Below, one piece after another: positions 652 through 24,103 of a stretch of 24,508 nt of DNA. This DNA is from a virus: the UHGV virus genome UHGV-0135138; one strand, 5' to 3'. The number at the start of each line of letters is the position of its first letter. The stretch's first letter is position 1. Both the position numbers and the translations under genes were made by a program. Under the pieces are notes generated by a model. That model was given only the letters and a program-made list of their open reading frames with translations, was not told the DNA's origin and did not search any database.

Positions 652-1907
652 TGGCAATCCCGTCCTCGCTCAGTCTTGTGCAACTGCATTCTGGACAGAT
701 GAAAGTCTTCCAGTCTCCGCATCGATTTAAAGTTGTTTGTGCTGGTCGACGCTGGGGAAAATCCCGGTTGTCGATCTCCACTATTATTCGTGCGGCGGCA
801 AAGGAAAAAAAGCAAAGGGTCTGGTATGTCGCTCCTACTTACCAGATGGCTCGCCAGATTTTGTGGGACGATCTACAGGAAATTCTGCCCCGTAAGTGGG
901 TTAGGAAAAAGAACGACACCACGATGACAATCGTGTTGAAGAACGGTTCGGAGATCGCCCTCAAAGGTGCTGATAAGCCTGACACTCTGCGCGGCGTAGC
1001 GTTGCATTTTGTAGTGCTTGATGAATTTCAGGATATGAAGGCTGACACCTGGTACAAGGTGTTACGACCTACTCTTTCATCGACACGCGGCGGTGCACTG
1101 ATTATTGGTACGCCAAAAGGCTTCTCGGAATTTCACAAACTGTGGACTATAGGCCAGAACGTAGAGCTGCAAAGAAAGGGACAGTGGAAGAGCTGGCAGT
1201 TTGTAACTGCTGATTCTCCGTTTGTGCCTACGGCGGAAATTGAAGCTGCTAAGAACGATATGGACCCTAAATCGTTCGCTCAGGAGTACCTGGCCAGCTT
1301 TGAAAATATGTCCGGGCGCGTTTACTACCCGTTCGATCGAAACGTGCATGTTAAACCGCTTCAGTTCAACCCTCGGTTGCCTATATGGGTAGGACAGGAC
1401 TTTAACATTGACCCGATGTCTTCCGTAATTTTGCAACCTCAGCCAAATGGTGAGCTATGGGCAATTGATGAATTGGTGCTCTTTTCTTCTAACACGGCAG
1501 AAGTTTGTGATGAGCTTGAGAGGCGCTTCTGGCGCTGGAAATCACAGGTAACGGTATTTCCAGATCCGGCAGGTGCTTATCGCCAACATGCTCGCGGGGA
1601 GTCTGACGTAGACATATTCAAAGAGAAGGGATTCTTACGTGTCGATTATTCGAAAAAGCACCCGCCAATTGCGGATCGTGTTAATGCTGTTAACCGAATG
1701 CTGATGACCGCATCTGGAGATATCCGGCTGTATATCGATCCGAAGTGCAAGCATTTGATTGATTCACTGGAAAAGGTCATCTACAAGCCTGGAACACGAG
1801 ATATGGATAAGACAGGTGGCATTGAGCATAGTGCAGACGCATTGGGCTATCCAGTACATCGTAGGTATCCAGTCAAAAACCGTGTTATTCTTGGTGGTTC
1901 TCGATAG
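651..1907 (+). CDS. terminase large subunit
   Basis: 418-aa ORF with Walker A-like motif (VVCAGRRWGKSRLS) near the N-terminus, Walker B-like hydrophobic stretch ending in acidic residues (HFVVLDEFQDM), and a C-terminal half with conserved acidic residues consistent with the nuclease domain. Sits between the small terminase and portal candidates. Confidence 0.85.
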   Translation: MAIPSSLSLVQLHSGQMKVFQSPHRFKVVCAGRRWGKSRLSISTIIRAAAKEKKQRVWYVAPTYQMARQILWDDLQEILPRKWVRKKNDTTMTIVLKNGSEIALKGADKPDTLRGVALHFVVLDEFQDMKADTWYKVLRPTLSSTRGGALIIGTPKGFSEFHKLWTIGQNVELQRKGQWKSWQFVTADSPFVPTAEIEAAKNDMDPKSFAQEYLASFENMSGRVYYPFDRNVHVKPLQFNPRLPIWVGQDFNIDPMSSVILQPQPNGELWAIDELVLFSSNTAEVCDELERRFWRWKSQVTVFPDPAGAYRQHARGESDVDIFKEKGFLRVDYSKKHPPIADRVNAVNRMLMTASGDIRLYIDPKCKHLIDSLEKVIYKPGTRDMDKTGGIEHSADALGYPVHRRYPVKNRVILGGSR

Positions 1908-1922
1908 GTAAGTAATTATCTA
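1905..1922 (+). promoter_or_regulatory. gene-junction element TAGGTAAGTAATTATCTA (TAAGTAA family); includes the terminase stop codon
   Basis: 18-mer that is 17/18 identical to 5334-5351. TAG/TAA/TAA fall in all three frames. Lies 12 nt upstream of the portal start. Confidence 0.35.
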
Positions 1923-1933
1923 GGGTTATTCAA

Positions 1934-3508
1934 ATGGAATTGAACGACAAACAAATTAAGGATCTGGTGGCGCGACGCCACCCGGAATACGAAAAGAAAA
2001 AAGAACATTGGGACTTCCTCGCCAGCACTTACGCTGGCGGGCGTGGTTGGTTTACAGACAATATCTTTCGTTACTTTAAAGAGGGAGATCAGGAGTTTAA
2101 GGAGAGAGTTGAGCGTGCTTATCGCTTCAACCACACTCGTGAGGTGGTAAACCTCATCAACAAATATCTCTTTAAAGAAGACATTCATAGAAATATCGAA
2201 GAGGCACCAGAGCAGATCCGCAATTTCTGGAAACGTGCGACTCGCCAGAATGCCTCTATTGACTCATTTATGGCCGCTATTGATTTGCAGTCGTCTATTT
2301 ACGGTCGCATATGGGTTGTTGTCGATAGCACGATGAGTGGTGATGTTGAGTCAGTAGCTGACGAGAAAAAGAAAGATGCTCGCGCCTACGCCTACTGGAT
2401 TTCACCTCAGCAAATGCTGGATGTGGCATGGGACGACGACGGGAATATGTTGTGGGCGTTAATTGTGGAAGTCGCTCGTGATGACGCAGATCCTTTTACT
2501 TCTACAGGTCAGGAATACCAACGTTATCGTCTGTGGACACAAAATACGTGGTATCTGTTCCGTGAGGAAGTGAAGAAGGGCGCTGGTGGAGCAGGTCGTC
2601 GTCAGGCAAAAGTTATTTTAGAGGATAGCGGTGCGCATAATCTCGGCGTAGTTCCGGTGTTTCCTGTTGATTGTATTGGAGAAAGTGAATCACCGTATTT
2701 CAGCCCATCGTTGATCGATGATATCGCTTATCTTGATCGTGCGGTTGCAAACTATCTGTCAAACCTTGATGCCATTATTCAGGATCAGACATTTAGCCAG
2801 TTGGCTATACCGGTACAGTCGCTTTTACCTGGTGATGAAAACCACACTAAAGTGCTTGAAATGGGCACAAAGCGAGTCTTCACCTACGATTCTGAAGGTG
2901 GAAACCAGCCGTTTTATCTGTCACCAGACCCGAAACAAGCTCAGATGATCATCACTACGATTAAGACGGTGATTAACGAAATCTACCATTCAGTTGGTGT
3001 AGCTGGTGAGCGAACGAAGCAGGACAACGCACAGGGAATAGATAATTCATCTGGTGCCGCAAAAATGTATGACTTCCAGCGTGTAAATAGCTTACTCGTC
3101 ACAAAAGCAGAACGTCTGGAAAGGGCTGAGCGTCAAATCATGCAACTGGTTGCGAAATGGATGGGGGTAGATCTGGACGAAGATCACTCATTAATTGCGT
3201 ATCCAGAAAGTTTCGATATTCGTGGCCTTACTGATGAATTTTCTGTTGCCGAGAAACTGTCGTTACTTCAGGCACCGGACTCTGTACGTCGTCACCAGAT
3301 GGAAATGCTGATTGAGAAGATTTTCCCGAACATCACTGAGGCGATGAAGAAGGAATTTGATAAAGATCTCTTGAATTTTCCGCCAAAAAATGATCTAAAT
3401 ACCCTTGAAAATAAGTCAGCACTTACTTATGATCAAGGCGCAGCCCAAGAAAGCGGGCAAGATCAACCCCGAGGGAATGGGGACTCATCTACTCAAGAGA
3501 ACGAGTGA
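1934..3508 (+). CDS. portal protein (putative)
   Basis: 524-aa ORF immediately downstream of the large terminase, the canonical portal position. Size and acidic C-terminal tail fit portal proteins. No motif-level confirmation is possible without a search. Confidence 0.65.
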   Translation: MELNDKQIKDLVARRHPEYEKKKEHWDFLASTYAGGRGWFTDNIFRYFKEGDQEFKERVERAYRFNHTREVVNLINKYLFKEDIHRNIEEAPEQIRNFWKRATRQNASIDSFMAAIDLQSSIYGRIWVVVDSTMSGDVESVADEKKKDARAYAYWISPQQMLDVAWDDDGNMLWALIVEVARDDADPFTSTGQEYQRYRLWTQNTWYLFREEVKKGAGGAGRRQAKVILEDSGAHNLGVVPVFPVDCIGESESPYFSPSLIDDIAYLDRAVANYLSNLDAIIQDQTFSQLAIPVQSLLPGDENHTKVLEMGTKRVFTYDSEGGNQPFYLSPDPKQAQMIITTIKTVINEIYHSVGVAGERTKQDNAQGIDNSSGAAKMYDFQRVNSLLVTKAERLERAERQIMQLVAKWMGVDLDEDHSLIAYPESFDIRGLTDEFSVAEKLSLLQAPDSVRRHQMEMLIEKIFPNITEAMKKEFDKDLLNFPPKNDLNTLENKSALTYDQGAAQESGQDQPRGNGDSSTQENE

Positions 3509-3529
3509 TAAGTAACAAAGGGAATTTTT

Positions 3530-4417
3530 ATGAAACTGTGGCAAATGCTTTTGGCCCGTCGTGGTCTGATGGATGTTGCTGAAGCGCATGAGCGTGGAGG
3601 CGCTGGCGGTGTAGCTGCTGATAATGAGCAGAGTACACAAGATCCTGACAAACAGGGTGAACAAAAAGAGCAGCCGAAGGGTGATGACGAATACGCTGGC
3701 ATGACTCATGAAGAGTTACTGGCCGAACTTCGTAAAACCAAGAAAGCTGGTGCTGAACTGCTGAAAGAGAACATGAAGCGCAAAGAGAAAGAGCGCACAT
3801 TGGCCGATCAGCTTGCTCAGTACGGTGATATCGACCCGACGCGTGCTCGCCAGCTTTTAGAAGCTGAACAGGCCGCAGAAAATGCACGTCGTGAGGCGGA
3901 GCAAGCTGAACTGGAGCGTCGTGGTGAGTTCGATGCTGTAAAAAAACAGATGGTCGAAGCACACCAGGCAGAGCTGGCACAGCGTGACGAACGTTATGTT
4001 GCTCTGGAAAGTGAAAACGCATCACTGAAATCTCAATTAGTCGAGATGACTGTGGGCGCTTCCTTCAGTAACTCTCTCTTCCTACGTGACAAAGTTCTGA
4101 TGACTCCGGCAAAAGCCCGCGTGATCTACGGCTCTCATTTTGAAGTGGGTGAAGACGGTAGCGTAGTGGGTTATGACAAACCGGCAGGTCATAAAGAACG
4201 AGCTGTTCTGGTTGACGGTGAAGGTAAGCCGTTGCCGTTTGAATCCGCGATTGAACGCATTGTGCGGGCAGATCCGGAAGCTGACGCATTGATGCGTAGC
4301 GAAGCCAAGCAGGGTGTAGGCTCACATTCCAAATCGACCTACACAATATCCCGACCGAAGAACAAGTCGACTATGGATAAGTTGGCCTCCGGTCTGGGGA
4401 AAATTGGACTTAAGTAA
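3530..4417 (+). CDS. scaffolding protein (putative)
   Basis: 295-aa ORF between portal and capsid genes. Central region is highly charged and helical/coiled-coil-like (ELLAELRKTKKAGAELLKENMKRKEKERTLADQLAQ...EAEQAAENARREAEQAELERRGE). AAGGGA RBS 7 nt upstream of the ATG. No protease motif recognised. Confidence 0.55.
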   Translation: MKLWQMLLARRGLMDVAEAHERGGAGGVAADNEQSTQDPDKQGEQKEQPKGDDEYAGMTHEELLAELRKTKKAGAELLKENMKRKEKERTLADQLAQYGDIDPTRARQLLEAEQAAENARREAEQAELERRGEFDAVKKQMVEAHQAELAQRDERYVALESENASLKSQLVEMTVGASFSNSLFLRDKVLMTPAKARVIYGSHFEVGEDGSVVGYDKPAGHKERAVLVDGEGKPLPFESAIERIVRADPEADALMRSEAKQGVGSHSKSTYTISRPKNKSTMDKLASGLGKIGLK

Positions 4418-4442
4418 CATCTAAATCAAAGGGAATTGGTAG

Positions 4443-5324
4443 ATGCCATTACTGCGTGAAGAAGCTGAAAAGCTGTCTAACAACGAACTCGAACAGGGTG
4501 TGATCGAAACTATCATCGATCGCGATGACCTGTTTGCCATCCTGCCGTTCATGAAGATTAACTCTAAGGCGTATCTGTACAATCGCGAGGCTACCCTGAG
4601 TGAAGCAGAGTTTATTGACGTGAACGATACCATCACGGAAGGCGCAGCAACCTTCACAGAACATGTAGCGAAGCTGCGTATTCTGGCTGGTGACGTAGAC
4701 GTTGATAAATTCCTGGCAACCACGATGGCCGACACTAACAACCAGTTGGCCATTCAGGTTCGTCAGAAAGTTAAAGGTCTGGCTCGTGCATTCCGCCGTA
4801 ATCTGATTTTGGGGGATTCCAGCACCAATGCTAAGGCTTTTGATGGTATTCCACGTCTGATGCATAACGACCAGAAGATCGATATCGCTAAAGCCTCTAT
4901 GACTTTCTCTATGTTTGATGAGTTGGTGGATGCAGTGAAAGATCTGGGCGCGGACTGCATTATGATGCGTTCAGAACATCTTCGTGCTTACCGTGCGCTG
5001 CTGCGTACCGTCAACATCGGACCGTCAGAAATTATGATAGAGAATTTTGGGCGTCCTATGCTGTGTCACAACGGAATTCCGTTTATTGTTAATGACTTTA
5101 TTCCGTTGACAACCGAAAAGGATGCAGCGGATATTTACTGTTTGCATTTATCGGAAGAGAACGGTTTGACTGGCCTGTATGGCGGCGACAATGCTGGTAT
5201 TGTCGTTGAAAACATTGGTACGGTTCAGAATAAAGATGCAACCCGTACTCGTGTAAAATGGTACTGCTCTCTAGCGAATAAGCACGATAAGGCTATCGCT
5301 GCACTGACTAATGTAAAAATTTAA
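4443..5324 (+). CDS. major capsid protein (putative)
   Basis: 293-aa ORF directly after the scaffold candidate, with the same CAAAGGGAATT RBS context (4427-4437 and 3516-3526), followed by a strong intrinsic terminator. Position and size fit a major capsid protein. Confidence 0.6.
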   Translation: MPLLREEAEKLSNNELEQGVIETIIDRDDLFAILPFMKINSKAYLYNREATLSEAEFIDVNDTITEGAATFTEHVAKLRILAGDVDVDKFLATTMADTNNQLAIQVRQKVKGLARAFRRNLILGDSSTNAKAFDGIPRLMHNDQKIDIAKASMTFSMFDELVDAVKDLGADCIMMRSEHLRAYRALLRTVNIGPSEIMIENFGRPMLCHNGIPFIVNDFIPLTTEKDAADIYCLHLSEENGLTGLYGGDNAGIVVENIGTVQNKDATRTRVKWYCSLANKHDKAIAALTNVKI

Positions 5325-5333
5325 TCAATGTGG

Positions 5334-5351
5334 TAGGTAAGTAATTACCTA
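5334..5351 (+). promoter_or_regulatory. gene-junction element TAGGTAAGTAATTACCTA (imperfect inverted repeat TAGGTAA-n4-TTACCTA)
   Basis: 17/18 identical to 1905-1922. Lies 10 nt after the capsid stop and just upstream of the terminator hairpin. Confidence 0.35.
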
Positions 5352-5355
5352 TGTT

Positions 5356-5384
5356 AAAGGGTGGGCTATACGCCCACCCTTTTT
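5356..5384 (+). terminator. intrinsic (rho-independent) terminator after the capsid gene
   Basis: AAAGGGTGGGC-TATAC-GCCCACCCTTTTT: GC-rich stem of 8 bp (extendable to 11 with flanking A/T) followed by a T5 run. Confidence 0.8.
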
Positions 5385-6057: not shown

Positions 6058-6101
6058 TCAGTATTGGGCGGCGAAAGCTGCCCATGTAGAGAGAAAGCGT
6101 A

Positions 6102-8258: not shown

Positions 8259-8642
8259 GTGTTTATCGAAGCGTTTGCAAGTTTGATGCAGAAGGCAAAG
8301 ATTGGCACGGTCGGGACTGACATTTTCTGTCACTACTTGCCTGCCAATGTGAAATCTGGCGTCCTGCTTATTAACCCAAATACCGGCATCAGCATCGATC
8401 ATGAGCTACAGGGCTTTTATCACGAATCATTCACAATCATTGTGCGTGGTTCATCAGTAACCACGACGGTTGATAAGGCCAATAAAATCATTGAGATGTT
8501 TCCAGTAGAGGAAACGGAATCTGGTGGTGTTTATTTTCGACTTGTACGACCGATGGCGATGCCAATCATTTATCCCAAAAATGATGGGGCATTAATAGAA
8601 GCAGGCATTCCTGTTGAATTTGCTGGCTATTTATTGAATTAA
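8259..8642 (+). CDS. hypothetical tail terminator / tail completion protein
   Basis: Frame is open from 8136, but a GTG at 8259 immediately follows the upstream stop (coupled start), giving ~127 aa. It is the last gene before the major tail protein gene. Confidence 0.5.
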   Translation: MFIEAFASLMQKAKIGTVGTDIFCHYLPANVKSGVLLINPNTGISIDHELQGFYHESFTIIVRGSSVTTTVDKANKIIEMFPVEETESGGVYFRLVRPMAMPIIYPKNDGALIEAGIPVEFAGYLLN

Positions 8643-8650
8643 GTCAATTG

Positions 8651-8666
8651 GTAAGTATATACTTAC
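8651..8666 (+). promoter_or_regulatory. perfect 16-bp palindrome GTAAGTATATACTTAC (TAAGTA family) upstream of the major tail protein gene
   Basis: Exact reverse-complement symmetry, in a 74-bp AT-rich intergenic region, 8 nt after the upstream stop and 50 nt before the ATG at 8717. Confidence 0.4.
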
Positions 8667-8716
8667 TGTTAGCGCAATAAATGCGTAGAATTAAAGGAAA
8701 AAGGAGTTTTCCATCA

Positions 8717-9463
8717 ATGTCTAATACCCATGTAAAAAACATCAAACTTGGTGCCTGTAAGGTGTCGTTTGGTGGTGTGGATTTGGGGTACACCAAAGGT
8801 GGTGTTCAGGTTGAAGTTGCCACTGAAACGCTGAAAGTCACCGTCGACCAGCACGGTCAGACAATTATGTCCGAGCTGGTGCAGGGTCGTAACATTACCA
8901 TTACTGCGCCGCTGGCCGAGTCTGTATTGAAAAATATGGTCGATCTGATGCCGGGGTCTACTCTGAGCGAAGACGACAACGCTGTGACCATTACTTCCGC
9001 ACAGGGCGTCAATCTGATCGATGTGGCGAAGGAGCTGGTTCTGACTCCGCAGGACACCACCGACTATGTGTTGACCATCCCAAAAGCGGCAACCGCGGGC
9101 AACTTCACGATGACCTACCAGTCTGATGATATCCGTGTGTTCTCTGTTCAATTCAGCGCATACCCAGATGACGCGGGTGTGTTGGGGAAAATGGGAATGC
9201 ACAAGCCTGTTGAGAGTATCGCGATTAATTCAGCTACCCAAACAGTCAAAGTGGGGGCAAAACTCCAGTTAAGTGCGGCTTTCACTCCAGCGGATGCAAG
9301 TAATAAATCTGGGGTATGGGAGTCTAATGCCCCAGATAAGGCTGTTGTAGATCAAAATGGGGTTGTTTCGGGCAAGGCGGTTGGCTCAGTCGAGATTACT
9401 TTCACCGCCGATGACAGCGGAAAAAAAGCAACTAAATCAATTTCGGTAACAGCAGCAGGCTAA
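8717..9463 (+). CDS. major tail (tube) protein with C-terminal Ig-like (Big_2-type) domain
   Basis: ORF is open from 8681, but the ATG at 8717 follows the strong RBS AAAGGAAAAAGGAG, giving ~248 aa. The C-terminal ~85 aa (IAINSATQTVKVGAKLQLSAAFTPADASNKSGVWESNAPDKAVVDQNGVVSGKAVGSVEITFTADDSGKKATKSISVTAAG) has the same Ig-like pattern as the 5398-6057 product. Followed by a hairpin and the chaperone-tape measure pair. Confidence 0.8.
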   Translation: MSNTHVKNIKLGACKVSFGGVDLGYTKGGVQVEVATETLKVTVDQHGQTIMSELVQGRNITITAPLAESVLKNMVDLMPGSTLSEDDNAVTITSAQGVNLIDVAKELVLTPQDTTDYVLTIPKAATAGNFTMTYQSDDIRVFSVQFSAYPDDAGVLGKMGMHKPVESIAINSATQTVKVGAKLQLSAAFTPADASNKSGVWESNAPDKAVVDQNGVVSGKAVGSVEITFTADDSGKKATKSISVTAAG

Positions 9464-9468
9464 ACGTC

Positions 9469-9494
9469 ATACGAGGCTTAATTAGGCCTCGTAT
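9469..9494 (+). terminator. stem-loop (possible partial terminator / attenuator) after the major tail protein gene
   Basis: ATACGAGGC-ttaattag-GCCTCGTAT, a 9-bp stem followed by CTTGTAT (only a partial U tract). Confidence 0.45.
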
Positions 9495-9517
9495 CTTGTA
9501 TAAAAGGATTTTAACAA

Positions 9518-9835: not shown

Positions 9836-10185
9836 TTTCCCGCGATGAATCCGGGACAAGGACCGTCTCAATAGATCTCGGATTCTATTTCAGTCGTGTA
9901 GTTGCTCACTACGCCGTGTCGCCATTAGAGCTATTGAACATCCCTCTCACGATGTTCTGGATGCTCAGCCGTAATATAGACCGTCTGCGTGCGGAAGAAG
10001 ATGTCCGCAACTTACAAGTCGCTCGTGTATCCCAGGCGAATGGCGAGGCTGTAAAGGCGTTCATGGAGGGGTTGCAACTCAGGATTGGAAGACCAGTCGT
10101 TACAGATAAAGTCTACGATCCAAGCCAGGATAAGGCAGACCCTGACGCCAAAGAGCAACTGATGCAAATATTTGGCAGAGGATGA
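9799..10185 (+). CDS. -1 frame extension of the tail assembly chaperone (lambda GT-like frameshift product, putative)
   Basis: The -1 frame is open from 9799 (after TGATGA at 9793-9798) to the stop at 10183-10185 and overlaps the last 12 codons of the chaperone ORF. Candidate slip site is the A5G run at 9807-9812 (GAA AAA G). The only internal start is a GTG at 9916 with no RBS, so independent initiation is unlikely. Confidence 0.5.
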   Translation, partial: RKRKSGWRRGKVISRDESGTRTVSIDLGFYFSRVVAHYAVSPLELLNIPLTMFWMLSRNIDRLRAEEDVRNLQVARVSQANGEAVKAFMEGLQLRIGRPVVTDKVYDPSQDKADPDAKEQLMQIFGRG

Positions 10186-14767: not shown

Positions 14768-14772
14768 CTATC

Positions 14773-14794
14773 GACTGCCCCAGACGGGGCAGTC
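14773..14794 (+). other. GC-rich stem-loop with no U tract at the tape measure / M junction
   Basis: GACTGCCCC-agac-GGGGCAGTC, a 9-bp perfect stem. It is followed by a second small hairpin, TCACA-agga-TGTGA, that places the AGGA Shine-Dalgarno of the next gene in its loop. Confidence 0.5.
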
Positions 14795-14809
14795 TCACAA
14801 GGATGTGAG

Positions 14810-15145: not shown

Positions 15146-15151
15146 CTATCT

Positions 15152-15174
15152 GGATAAGTAAGTTCTAATTTACT
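15152..15174 (+). promoter_or_regulatory. TAAGTAAGT-containing AT-rich element (GGATAAGTAAGTTCTAATTTACT) upstream of L
   Basis: Member of the TAAGTA junction-motif family, 7 nt after the M stop. Followed by a 6-bp stem hairpin, GGCGCT-n11-AGCGCC (15183-15205). Confidence 0.3.
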
Positions 15175-15227
15175 ATTATTATGGCGCTGACAGGATGTTA
15201 GCGCCTACTTATTTCAAGGATGAAACA

Positions 15228-21475: not shown

Positions 21476-21505
21476 TAGTAGAAAAAAAAATTTATATCGG
21501 TAAAA

Positions 21506-21548
21506 ATAAGTAGGTATTTACTTTGTGGTGGGCAAGAATAGCCCACCA
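21506..21548 (+). promoter_or_regulatory. J / tail fibre intergenic element: TAAGTA-family inverted repeat plus GC-stem hairpin
   Basis: ATAAGTAGGTATTTACTT (AAGTA-n6-TACTT inverted repeat) then TGGTGGGC-aagaata-GCCCACCA, an 8-bp stem with no U tract. The stem shares GTGGGC/GCCCAC with the terminator at 5356-5384. An A9 run lies at 21482-21490. Confidence 0.35.
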
Positions 21549-21568: not shown

Positions 21569-24103
21569 ATGTGGTACAGGGAAGGTACTATCACATTTAC
21601 ACAGGGTAGCAATACTCTGGTTGGGGCAGGGACAGCCTGGAACGTAACCGCTAATGGTGTGTTGCCGGGTATGATCGTCGTTGGCCCCGATAATAAACTG
21701 TATGAGATCAAGCGCGTAACCAGTGACACGAATATTGTTCTCTCAGAACCTTATACCGGTGAAACTCAGTCTGAAGTTCCGTGCCGAATCATTACGACCT
21801 ATGAGGGCGACTTAACGCAGTTTAGCGCACGCTTTACTGCACTAATGTCGCGTATGTCGGCTGATTCCAAGTCCATGCGTAGTTGGCTGACTGCCGTGGA
21901 TGAAATCACAATTGAACGTGAAGATGGTACGGAATTAACCATAAAATCCCTTACTCAGATCGTTAATGAGCACAACAAAAACGTAGAGTGGTATAAAAAT
22001 AACACTGATGAAATTGATTCCGCTGGCACCTATGCGCGTGAGGCCGCGAGTAGCGCGACAACTGCTGCGCAAAACGCTGAGCGCGTTGAACAGATCGCGC
22101 AAAATATTGCTAACAGTATAAGTACGGCCCAGCAGGCTGCCACAGATGCTGCAAATAGTGCCGGTGCCGCGAAAACGTCAGAAACGAATGCGGCAGCGTC
22201 ACAACAATCAGCAGCCACTTCTGCATCCACCGCGACCACGAAAGCGTCAGAAGCAGCCTCCTTAGCCAGGGATGCGTCGGCTTCAAAAGAGGCGGCAAAA
22301 TCATCAGAAGCGAACGCGAAAGCGTCGGAAACCAGTGCCGAATCCTCAAAAACGGCAGCCGCATCGTCAGCCAGTTCGGCAGCGTCATCGGCATCGTCTG
22401 CGTCGGCTTCAAAAGATGAAGCGACTAAACAGGCGTCAGCCGCAAAAGATAGTGCTATGACTGCATCCTCGAAAGCAACAGAGGCGACAGGCAGTGCAAC
22501 GGCTGCCTCTCAGAGCAAAACTGCTGCTGAATCCGCTGCGACCCGTGCGGAAGCTGCTGCTGCTCGTGCTGAAGAGATTGCCGGTGCAGTTGCGATGGAA
22601 GACGCAAGCCTTACAACTAAAGGTGTTGTGAAACTTAGCAGTGCGACCAACAGCACTTCAGAGTCACTGGCTGCAACCCCAAAAGCGGTAAAAGCTGCAT
22701 ATGACCTGGCTGACGGGAAATACACTGCGCAGGATGCAACGACAACCCAGAAAGGGATAATCCAGCTAAGTAGCGCCATCAATGACGAATCTGAAACGCT
22801 TGCTGCAACGCCAAAAGCGGTAAAAGTCGCCTATGACAATGCCGAAAACCGCCTGCAGAAAGATCAGAATGGCGCTGATATCCCTGACAAGAACGCATTC
22901 AGGGAAAGTCTTGGGCTGGGGGATGCCGCCACCAAAAATATCGGTACTACAGCCGGCACCGTAGCGGCAGGAAACGACTCCAGACTGGTTAACGCACTGC
23001 AAAAATCCACTTCAGCCCTGGCCGTGGACCTGAATACACTGGGGAGTCTGGAAGTCCAGGGAACTTATTATCAGCCAGCGGATAAAGGGGCAACAGCTGC
23101 GCATCATTACCCGGTGCTCCGGTCCGGGACATTGCAGGTTCTGCCTGGTGTCTGGGGAGGCTGCCAACAGGAATATACGAGCTGGAATCCACCGAGAAAA
23201 TTTGTGAGAACACTGACAGGCTATTTCAAAGGTAATGGCCCGTGGTCGCCGTGGGTGGAGGTGGCGTTTACCGACAGTACAGTGGCTGTTGCGACCGCAG
23301 CGACAAAATTGCAGACGACCAGAAGAGTTGGTGGTGTGGATTTTGACGGGACATCAGATATCAGCCTCCCCGGAGTGGATGCGCCAGGCGATCAGGATAC
23401 GACAGGTAATGCGGCTACTGCGACCAAATTGCAGACGCCAGTGAATATTAACGGTACAGCGTTTGATGGTAGCCACGATATCACGATCCGGGATGAAGGT
23501 GCATTTCAGAAGCCTGCGCTCTTTATACATTCCTCTGTAGATTTGAACACGCTAGGTGGTCCAGGTAGCGAAGGTTTTTATTTTCAGAAATACGGGAGTG
23601 TGGCGACAGTTGATCATCATTACCCAACCAACAGACCAGGCACGCTGACTGTACTGCGTGGTGGATTTGACGGATGCCAGCAGGAATATTTTAGTGTTAA
23701 TCCTCCAAGGAAATTTTTCAGGGCATTAACAGGAGCCTGGAACGGACAGGATGGCCCATGGTCAGACTGGTTTGAGATTCAGACTCTGGGAGGTGGAAGT
23801 GGAGGTACGCAGGTTTTTGGAACCGAATATCAAAATAAATCATCAGAACGCGGTCCGGGTGTTACATACACTAATAGTCGATCGTATCCGATTATGGTGA
23901 TCATTGATGGATACTACGGAGGTGGTGACGGTTTTCATCTTTTTATAAACGATGAAATATTGATATCCCCATCTACATCTTCAGGACAAAATGACGACCA
24001 ATTTCAGTTTACTTTCATCGTTCCGGCAGGCGCAACGTACATGATCTTTGAAAAAACTTTCGGTACGAATTTCCGTATTCACACCTGGTTGGAGTTTTGT
24101 TAA
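21569..24103 (+). CDS. stf: side tail fibre protein (Stf-like), mosaic
   Basis: 844 aa with GGAG RBS. Long Ala/Ser/Thr-rich shaft (AAKTSETNAAASQQSAATSASTATTKASEAA...) that I recall as nearly identical to lambda Stf. Conserved tail-fibre motifs TKGVVKLSSATNSTSESLAATPKAVKAAYDLADGKYTAQDATTTQKGIIQLSSAINDESETLAATPKAVKVAYDNAEN. Distinct N-terminus and a C-terminal region with internal duplications. Confidence 0.9.
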   Translation: MWYREGTITFTQGSNTLVGAGTAWNVTANGVLPGMIVVGPDNKLYEIKRVTSDTNIVLSEPYTGETQSEVPCRIITTYEGDLTQFSARFTALMSRMSADSKSMRSWLTAVDEITIEREDGTELTIKSLTQIVNEHNKNVEWYKNNTDEIDSAGTYAREAASSATTAAQNAERVEQIAQNIANSISTAQQAATDAANSAGAAKTSETNAAASQQSAATSASTATTKASEAASLARDASASKEAAKSSEANAKASETSAESSKTAAASSASSAASSASSASASKDEATKQASAAKDSAMTASSKATEATGSATAASQSKTAAESAATRAEAAAARAEEIAGAVAMEDASLTTKGVVKLSSATNSTSESLAATPKAVKAAYDLADGKYTAQDATTTQKGIIQLSSAINDESETLAATPKAVKVAYDNAENRLQKDQNGADIPDKNAFRESLGLGDAATKNIGTTAGTVAAGNDSRLVNALQKSTSALAVDLNTLGSLEVQGTYYQPADKGATAAHHYPVLRSGTLQVLPGVWGGCQQEYTSWNPPRKFVRTLTGYFKGNGPWSPWVEVAFTDSTVAVATAATKLQTTRRVGGVDFDGTSDISLPGVDAPGDQDTTGNAATATKLQTPVNINGTAFDGSHDITIRDEGAFQKPALFIHSSVDLNTLGGPGSEGFYFQKYGSVATVDHHYPTNRPGTLTVLRGGFDGCQQEYFSVNPPRKFFRALTGAWNGQDGPWSDWFEIQTLGGGSGGTQVFGTEYQNKSSERGPGVTYTNSRSYPIMVIIDGYYGGGDGFHLFINDEILISPSTSSGQNDDQFQFTFIVPAGATYMIFEKTFGTNFRIHTWLEFC

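Follow-up and report, generated by a model that had tools for sequence, protein, structure and literature searches.

What role, if any, is played by a short sequence that recurs almost unchanged between the genes of a phage? The question is raised by UHGV virus genome UHGV-0135138, of which a stretch of 24,508 nucleotides (hereafter the window) was analyzed. The initial annotation of this DNA, made from its letters alone, had reported near-identical 18-mers at two gene junctions, terminase–portal and capsid–Ig-like protein, and both are confirmed: TAGGTAAGTAATTATCTA (1905–1922) and TAGGTAAGTAATTACCTA (5334–5351) agree at 17 of 18 positions. We found that the repeated 18-mer is one copy of an imperfect palindrome of 22–26 bp in phage-plasmids of the SSU5/pHCM2/pMT1 type. 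Judged from sequence comparisons, the two 18-mers may well be copies of a dispersed cis-regulatory DNA palindrome that occurs in the lytic genes of SSU5-like elements at approximately 25 copies per genome, a reading that we hold tentatively. Among the roles that had been offered for the 18-mers (regulator binding, a late promoter, or an RNA processing site), binding of a putative regulator is the best supported, and its support comes from variants of the site that are clade-specific and genome-wide.

The window (24.5 kb) corresponds to the virion-structure module of an SSU5-like phage-plasmid, extending from the small terminase to the tail fibre, and the genes concerned are all on the plus strand. 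Its first 8 kb are 94–95% identical to Escherichia phage Cyrano (pLF82), and the window is approximately 80% identical to Salmonella phage SSU5. A total of 832 plasmid records match it, from Klebsiella, Escherichia, Enterobacter, Yersinia pestis (pMT1), and Salmonella. SSU5-like phage-plasmids are very common in clinical Enterobacteriaceae. We found almost nothing published on how their lytic genes are silenced or switched, as full-text searches gave general descriptions only. Similarly, no description of the motif was found in full-text literature searches, and the motif string GGTAAGTA returned only unrelated primer sequences and the like.

A dispersed palindrome and its clade-specific variants

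Both 18-mers match their own reverse strand with two or three mismatches, which identifies the element as an inverted repeat (TAGGTAA-GTAA-TTAYCTA). The ideal palindrome, derived from approximately 26 sites in Cyrano, is (AT)GATAGGTAAGT followed directly by ACTTACCTATC(AT). Its half-site spans 11–13 bp, (AT)GATARGTAAGT, and the 22-bp site written as a duplex is GATAGGTAAGTACTTACCTATC. The half-site is itself a period-4 array, GATA-GGTA-AGTA, with an RRTA structure. Because of this array, stop codons occur in all three frames (TAG/TAA in both GATAGGTAAGTAA and its complement), and the apparent spacing between TAAGT cores is ambiguous, being either 0 or 4 nt.

Within the window, the 18-mer at three or fewer mismatches occurs only at the two reported positions, compared with 0.03 occurrences expected from shuffles. 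The word TARRTAAGT is found four times (0.52 expected), a count reached by none of 100 shuffles, and TAAGTAA alone is modestly enriched (six copies compared with 2.0 expected; two of 100 shuffles reach six). For genome-wide counts we used the assembled complete genome of Cyrano (108 kb), the closest complete relative, and measured enrichment against an intergenic Markov expectation. The intergenic bias of the family is clear there: TAAGTA is the most over-represented intergenic hexamer (31 copies in 14.7 kb of intergenic sequence, 6.5 expected; z = 9.6) and is found just 13 times in the 94 kb that are coding; ATAAGTAA has 13 copies compared with 0.64 expected. A scan of IMG/VR with TAGGTAAGTNNTTACCTA recovered both SSU5-like contigs and unrelated ones, in numbers that chance could account for.

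The approximately 26 Cyrano sites, about one per 4 kb, lie between plus-strand genes of all lytic classes, namely, replication, recombination, nucleotide metabolism, structure, and lysis, and include sites upstream of primase-, ligase-, SSB-, recA-, nrdA-, and thyX-region genes. Many of them begin 0–20 nt past the upstream stop codon, and most copies begin within 0–30 nt of it, inside operons. Each of them falls either in a plus-strand (lytic) unit or in one of two divergent regulatory regions. No Cyrano site was found within the minus-strand units, which hold the majority of the Cyrano genes with reported expression in the LF82 lysogen (PMC9928086).

To examine conservation, all gene junctions were first compared in seven annotated relatives; the comparison was then extended to 80 IMG/VR loci, retrieved by means of the large terminase (TerL) protein. 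The palindromic sites are conserved in more than 80 relatives. As the initial annotation had proposed, conservation continues past the stop triplets, which marks a sequence-specific element. Five junctions have a dyad-symmetric copy in essentially all relatives: TerL–portal, major capsid protein (MCP)–Ig, g11–major tail, M–L, and J–fibre. The TerL–portal site is present in 85 of 88 related loci, and the changes in its arms retain the dyad (TAGGTAA/TTACCTA, TAAGTAA/TTACTTA, TAGGTGG/CTACCTA, and TAGGTAT/ATACCTA). Among 31 distinct orthologous versions of the MCP–Ig site, 89% of arm cells are paired and four of the ten pairs change on both sides; this pairing score exceeds that of every column-shuffled or slid control. 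The g11–major-tail core is near-invariant across 35 distinct junction sequences, a few of which have one substitution, and differs in the distant clade.

The arms also differ among clades in a concerted manner. Those of the E. coli, Klebsiella, and SSU5 elements are TARGTAA/TTACYTA. In a clade with approximately 90% TerL identity, the TerL–portal and MCP–Ig copies are both GATAGGTRG-nnnn-CTACCTATC; the plasmid of Cronobacter sp. JZ38, which belongs to this clade, has CTACCTA, TAGGTAG, and ATAGGTAG as its top non-coding k-mers and the TAGGTAG/CTACCTA form at approximately 17 sites. The most distant clade (IMG/VR loci L082–L088 and Moellerella plasmid pW1-b) has TAGGTAT/ATACYTA arms. The innermost arm pair is therefore A-T, G-C, or T-A according to clade, at all sites of a genome. 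Such concerted, clade-specific change implies co-evolution with a putative phage-encoded factor, since a factor common to related hosts offers no reason for the clades to differ in concert. The Moellerella-type TAGGTAT variant also loses the three-frame stop pattern and retains the palindrome. On this ground, the stacked stops, which had been suggested to catch frameshifted ribosomes, are better regarded as a by-product than as the function.

The window contains eight copies, of which five are full sites; the others are a half-site, a decayed copy, and a copy within the portal gene. The earlier description of a repeated junction motif thus stands, but the dyad symmetry and the portal-internal copy had been overlooked. 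The full palindrome at TerL–portal (1903–1924, no strand assigned) consists of GATAGGTAAGT followed by AATTATCTAGG; it includes the TerL stop TAG (1905–1907), and its right end is 9 nt before the portal ATG. The one at MCP–Ig (5332–5353, no strand assigned) consists of GGTAGGTAAGT followed by AATTACCTATG and begins 7 nt past the MCP stop. The other cores listed in the initial annotation are all present, and those at three further junctions proved to be true palindromic members. The g11–major-tail site (8647–8670, no strand assigned) has a perfect 16-bp palindromic core, GTAAGTATATACTTAC, at 8651–8666. The M–L site, TGGATAAGTAAGTTCTAATTTACTATTAT (15151–15179, plus strand), is in Klebsiella relatives a perfect 10+10 inverted repeat, TAGATAAGTAagTACTTATCTA. 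The J–tail-fibre site, AAATAAGTAGGTATTTACTTTG (21504–21525, no strand assigned), is followed by a GC hairpin at 21527–21547. The remaining two listed cores did not hold as full members. One is a left half-site, TGATAAGTAAC (3506–3516, plus strand), that overlaps the portal stop TGA, lacks an inverted partner, and is kept in all relatives. The other, TTAAGTAACATCTAAAT at the g4–MCP junction (4410–4426, plus strand), is a decayed copy resembling the TerL–portal copy minus 1 nt, and its membership in the family is weak.

Two of these sites lie close to open reading frames with mechanically called starts at 8681 (major tail gene) and 15195 (gene L), which are probably wrong. Comparison with relatives and strong ribosome-binding sites (AAAAAGGAG and AAGGATGAAACA) make 8717 and 15228 the likelier starts, and with these later starts the motif and its subsequent hairpin are fully intergenic.

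Promoter association and a putative operator role

In a sigma70-like consensus scan of the window, three of the nine plus-strand promoter-like matches fall on motif copies, which occupy approximately 0.8% of the sequence. The statement in the initial annotation that no copy matches a sigma70 arrangement therefore does not hold for the g11–tail, M–L, and portal-internal copies, each of which overlaps a promoter-like −35/−10 pair. The portal-internal copy, AATAAGTCAGCACTTACTTAT (3410–3430, plus strand), fills the spacer of a promoter with 10 of 12 consensus matches, TTGAAA (3405–3410)-17-TATGAT (3428–3433), located at 3405–3433 on the plus strand in the last approximately 100 nt of the portal gene 3′ end. 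The g11–tail site is overlapped by TTGAAT-18-TATACT (8634–8663, plus strand), the −10 of which is the palindrome center, and the M–L copy coincides with TGGATA-17-TATTAT, also on the plus strand.

The same association was found in Cyrano, where eight of 26 sites reach a promoter score of 9/12 or more, compared with 1.3% of intergenic control positions. The comparison is in part circular, since the right end of the motif supplies a −10-like hexamer, although the −35 hexamers are outside the motif. Only two plus-strand matches of 10/12 occur in the 108 kb of Cyrano, one internal to the portal gene and the other at recA–56 (TTGAAA-17-TATCAT), and the motif is in both spacers. The portal-internal promoter forms a 29-bp island of nucleotide conservation within a variable C-terminal tail. 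The flanking codons vary, and the promoter is conserved at synonymous positions in all clades. Its −35 is TTGAAA (TTGATA in L086) and its −10 is TATGAT, TATCAT, or TATTAT in all clades, and the spacer tracks the motif variant of each clade. This promoter would drive the scaffold-like and major capsid genes independently of the terminase and portal genes. The register of the dyad center relative to the −35 and −10 elements differs between sites. Furthermore, the gene for a helix-turn-helix (HTH) repressor in Cyrano has a predicted promoter, TTTACA-16-TAATAT, followed directly by CGGTAAGCACTTACC at approximately +1.

Our preferred explanation, advanced with limited confidence, is that the sites serve as DNA operators, scattered over the genome, of a phage regulator that is probably the lysogeny repressor and that would block promoters and act as a roadblock at junctions. 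Such a repressor would silence the approximately 100 kb of lytic genes during the plasmid life of the element. At promoter-associated copies, those in the spacer, −10, or +1 region (in the window, the portal-internal, g11–tail, and M–L copies), the bound protein would block initiation. At copies a few bases past a stop codon inside operons (TerL–portal, MCP–Ig, and J–fibre), it would act as a roadblock or insulator against read-through, in the manner of the L5 stoperators described below. The near-consensus −35 and −10 elements that flank a spacer palindrome fit repression better than activation, and the variable register favors an operator over an activator site, since operators tolerate such variation and activator sites generally do not. 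The palindromic form and the length of 22–26 bp imply binding of a dimer, and we infer a dimeric regulator that is encoded by the phage, binds palindromic DNA, and acts as a repressor. The candidate is the XRE/HTH protein adjoining the integrase, CYRAN_45 in Cyrano, which is encoded outside the window. Several sites have one strong half-site and a degenerate partner, and because of this degeneracy no hairpin is possible at them.

Two known systems provide a comparison. In mycobacteriophage L5, more than 20 sites in promoters and short intergenic spaces are proposed to block initiation and elongation for prophage silence (PMC9283540). The L5 (Cluster A) stoperators thus resemble the sites described here in having more than 20 copies of one short motif (approximately 26 in Cyrano) in both promoters and intra-operon gaps, and perhaps also in an orientation bias relative to transcription, which here would take the form of a palindromic site with a better 5′ half. 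They differ in that the L5 sites are asymmetric, 13 bp long, and bound by a monomer with two DNA-binding domains, and in that the elements considered here are plasmid-prophages of Gram-negative enterobacterial hosts, in which a Cluster A-type repressor was not sought. The C1 system of P1 likewise has one repressor with many operators across a plasmid-prophage of approximately 100 kb, comparable to the one putative regulator here, and its operators overlap sigma70 promoters of separate lytic operons (NC_005856 annotation), a promoter overlap that is seen here too. The P1 operators differ in being asymmetric and 17 bp long, and both the C1 and the L5 sites are bound by monomers, unlike what is proposed for the palindrome here. 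No C1 homologue was found in Cyrano when P1 C1 was compared with the whole genome by tblastn (best E = 2.0).

Several observations weigh against an operator role. No convincing −35 accompanies the TerL–portal or the MCP–Ig copy, and the former cannot be the portal promoter because its right end is too close (9 nt) to the portal ATG. Only in Cyrano is a motif copy clearly recognizable ahead of the repressor gene. The HTH protein and the FljA-family protein considered below are both present in all three clades, such that their distribution gives no means of choosing between the two. Relative to the direction of transcription, it is the 5′ half-site that lies nearer the consensus at 20 sites and the 3′ half-site at six (two genomes), a bias that a symmetric dimer on DNA does not predict. 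Lastly, the core-adjacent arm pairs of the MCP–Ig site show mismatches that are, with few exceptions, G-T and in no case A-C (this does not extend to the two outermost flank pairs), and by our reading approximately six independent Moellerella sites pair TAGG with CTTA (G-T) with no A-C equivalents. These mismatch patterns hint at selection on the transcribed strand.

Another protein, CYRAN_43, was considered as an abundant repressor and rejected, as it has no homologue in Cronobacter or Moellerella. It has been reported as by far the most expressed Cyrano gene in the LF82 lysogen, at 723-fold over background (PMC9928086). The gene (Cyrano L008, 13296–13850) encodes no Pfam domain, and a HEPN/Toprim-associated gene occupies its position in Cronobacter; CYRAN_43 is probably a variable defence or exclusion gene.

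One palindrome marking approximately 25 control points per genome would offer a handle on the lytic switch, both as a DNA or RNA probe for the regulator and as a guide to predicted promoters. The clade-specific variants would supply a sequence signature of immunity groups among these plasmids. The sites would also extend among Gram-negative plasmid-prophages the dispersed operator/stoperator logic that has been characterized mainly in P1 and mycobacteriophages.

RNA, activator, and other explanations

A second explanation is that the transcribed palindrome forms an AU-rich hairpin in polycistronic lytic mRNAs and serves as the operator of a phage RNA-binding protein, with an FljA-family protein as the candidate. 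Binding would then control the translation, processing, or stability of neighboring cistrons. We consider this unlikely, although several of the observations suit it. In RNA the core-adjacent mismatches of the MCP–Ig site become almost all G-U with no A-C, of the two half-sites the 5′ one is the better conserved, and the usual position is 0–30 nt past a stop codon inside an operon. Over all junction variants G-U pairs outnumber A-C pairs (73 vs. 43), but the variants are non-independent and the counts are noisy because the automated palindrome register is ambiguous through the period-4 RRTA half-site. All five hairpins of the window fold better on the sense strand, yet overall the sense strand has no advantage, being the more stable one at 17 of 25 Cyrano sites (p = 0.11) and at seven of 17 in Cronobacter. 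The hairpins are also of low stability (−2 to −10 kcal/mol), folding is impossible at several sites, and the loop or center sequence is not conserved. The two strongest promoter-embedded copies are upstream of their own predicted start sites; the recA–56 copy, which is upstream of a predicted start and downstream of a terminator, would for that reason be poorly represented in RNA. No Rfam family matches the window.

The candidate protein itself belongs to family PF03614 (Flag1_repress, FljA) and is encoded by both Cyrano (E = 1e-80) and Cronobacter; the Moellerella version is diverged but still scores above the gathering cutoff (E = 2e-7). Regulators of the FljA type have been reported to prevent translation of fliC mRNA (PMC2652032). 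The Salmonella fliC sequence around the Shine-Dalgarno site is TTGATAAGGAAAAGATCATG, in which TTGATAAG and ATCAT are shared with the outer arms of the motif; the E. coli fliC counterpart is ATATAGGATAACGAATCATG. This likeness to the fliC leader is short and is a lead only. In the distant clade, the major-tail copy encloses the Shine-Dalgarno site and start codon (ATAAGTAAGGGAATACTTATG), and it is the only copy to do so. The FljA/fliC system of Salmonella thus resembles the situation here in the presence of an FljA-family protein, in three clades, and in the sequence elements shared with the fliC leader. It differs in that Salmonella FljA, which binds fliC mRNA to stop its translation, has one known target, in a 5′ leader, compared with approximately 25 sites here that are mostly past stop codons. 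That an FljA-family protein binds some 25 lytic-mRNA hairpins as a genome-wide post-transcriptional lock or temporal program appears improbable. Such a lock, if true, would be the first FljA-type regulon and would silence a prophage in a way that no phage has been described to use.

The FljA-family gene is syntenic in the three clades (CYRAN_114 in Cyrano, L009, 23808–24329, minus strand; Cronobacter L091, 26638–27165; Moellerella L226, 15474–16001), and no flagellin gene accompanies it in these phage-plasmids. The protein may silence host fliC or act on phage transcripts.

A further explanation is that the motif belongs to an activator-dependent phage promoter, in which the palindrome lies approximately 20 bp upstream of the start and is combined with a TATCAT-like hexamer at its right edge, similar to the Lpa-dependent promoters of P1. 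The enterobacterial phage-plasmid P1 has 11 late promoters, and its Lpa site is a 9-bp inverted repeat (PMC10695390). The late promoters AAGTGACTT-tcaa-TAAAAT and ATGTGACTT-tcgt-TACCCT have an AAGT/ACTT dyad before the −10, as does the arrangement TAAGT/ACTTAcc-TATCAT here, and the inverted repeat, which has multiple copies per genome, would likewise be just upstream of a −10 and in the place of a −35. A TAnnnT hexamer borders most motif copies on the right, and these copies lack a good −35. An activator role of this kind nevertheless seems rather unlikely. In the commonest register the dyad center is approximately 7.5–9.5 bp upstream of TAnnnT, but the distance to the −10 is not constant, and a consensus −35, TTGAAA, is present at two copies. 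The best copies already possess near-consensus −35 and −10 elements. A start 7 nt past the TerL–portal copy would delete the portal ribosome-binding site. Copies are found upstream of genes for replication, recombination, and nucleotide metabolism and also of structural genes, and because they precede early-type and structural genes alike, the motif does not define a temporal class. In P1, by contrast, the late genes use a separate Lpa box, whereas a single motif here serves early-type as well as late genes; the box of P1 measures 9 bp compared with 22–26 bp, and the motif here is not restricted to late genes, has some consensus −35 elements, and has a variable register. No homologue of Lpa was found when P1 Lpa was compared with Cyrano by tblastn (best E = 0.29).

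This one weak hit is in CYRAN_116, the family of which was tried as a candidate Lpa (pairwise BLASTP E = 0.001) and rejected: it has no match to PF25716, a profile of 21 orthologues gave no match to Lpa, and the family is absent from the Cronobacter plasmid. In P1 itself, the annotated −22 boxes AAGTGACTT, AAGTTACTT, and ATGTGACTT (8825–8843, 28485–28513, 36521–36544, and 40475–40493) have an AAGT/ACTT dyad core.

It is extremely improbable that the motif has no dedicated function and represents stacked-stop AT-rich junctions, recombination linkers, or dispersed parS-like centromere sites: the three-frame stops of GATAGGTAAGTAA would by themselves exclude it from coding DNA, and copies do occur at module boundaries, but the enrichment holds against the intergenic Markov expectation and not only against coding sequence, conservation reaches non-stop positions and the inverted arm, the TAGGTAT variant keeps the dyad without the three-frame stops, and a copy persists within a coding region. 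The phage-plasmid N15 is known to have dispersed centromere repeats; many copies here are imperfect or half-sites, unlike centromere repeats, and recombination linkers should be common to clades, whereas these sites are clade-specific. Clade specificity together with site degeneracy led us to reject the parS and recombination-linker readings.

Known host elements were also compared with the motif. It is not itself an intrinsic terminator, as its arms are AT-rich and have no T run (terminator scan of the window). The LexA box CTGT-N8-ACAG has no occurrence in the window. The Fur box, compared by eye only, shares the outer GATA/TATC ends with the motif but differs in the center and was rejected.

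Other features of the window and its relatives

The terminator scan instead picks separate GC hairpins located 3′ of the motif, at 5359–5375 and 15183–15205. The former belongs to an intrinsic terminator, AAAGGGTGGGCtataCGCCCACCCTTTTT (5356–5384, plus strand), that is directly 3′ of the MCP–Ig site, is separate from the motif, and is kept in relatives. The latter is a terminator-like GC hairpin, GGCGCTGACAGGATGTTAGCGCC, with a T-rich tail (15183–15205, plus strand), directly 3′ of the M–L site, and is given here as context only. GC-rich hairpins are also present at the junctions 6058–6101, 9464–9517, and 14768–14809. Their stems vary among relatives with complementarity kept (GGGCGGCgaaaGCTGCCC compared with GGGGTGGCtctgGCCACCCT), and they look like conserved intercistronic terminators or stabilizers distinct from the AT-rich motif.

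Apart from the palindrome, a second set of over-represented intergenic words was found in Cyrano, CTACAGTGGATA (AGTGGATA: eight copies compared with 0.21 expected). It is unrelated to the motif, and, with some copies near repA, probably represents RepA iterons. The Moellerella plasmid has its own repeated words, CCTAGCTCCCATAG and CGGGAAACGG.

Between the stop of a 105-aa gene and the GTG of the next open reading frame, 80 nt (9836–9915) are near-invariant among relatives that are approximately 78–80% identical elsewhere. This segment would fit a programmed frameshift in a tail assembly chaperone, of the lambda G/GT type, or a structured element. Within the tail-fibre gene, 161 bp (22157–22317) are 90–96% identical to side-tail-fibre genes of many lambdoid coliphages and to the E. 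coli prophage gene stfR, an identity that indicates a probable mosaic exchange of the fibre N-terminal domain.

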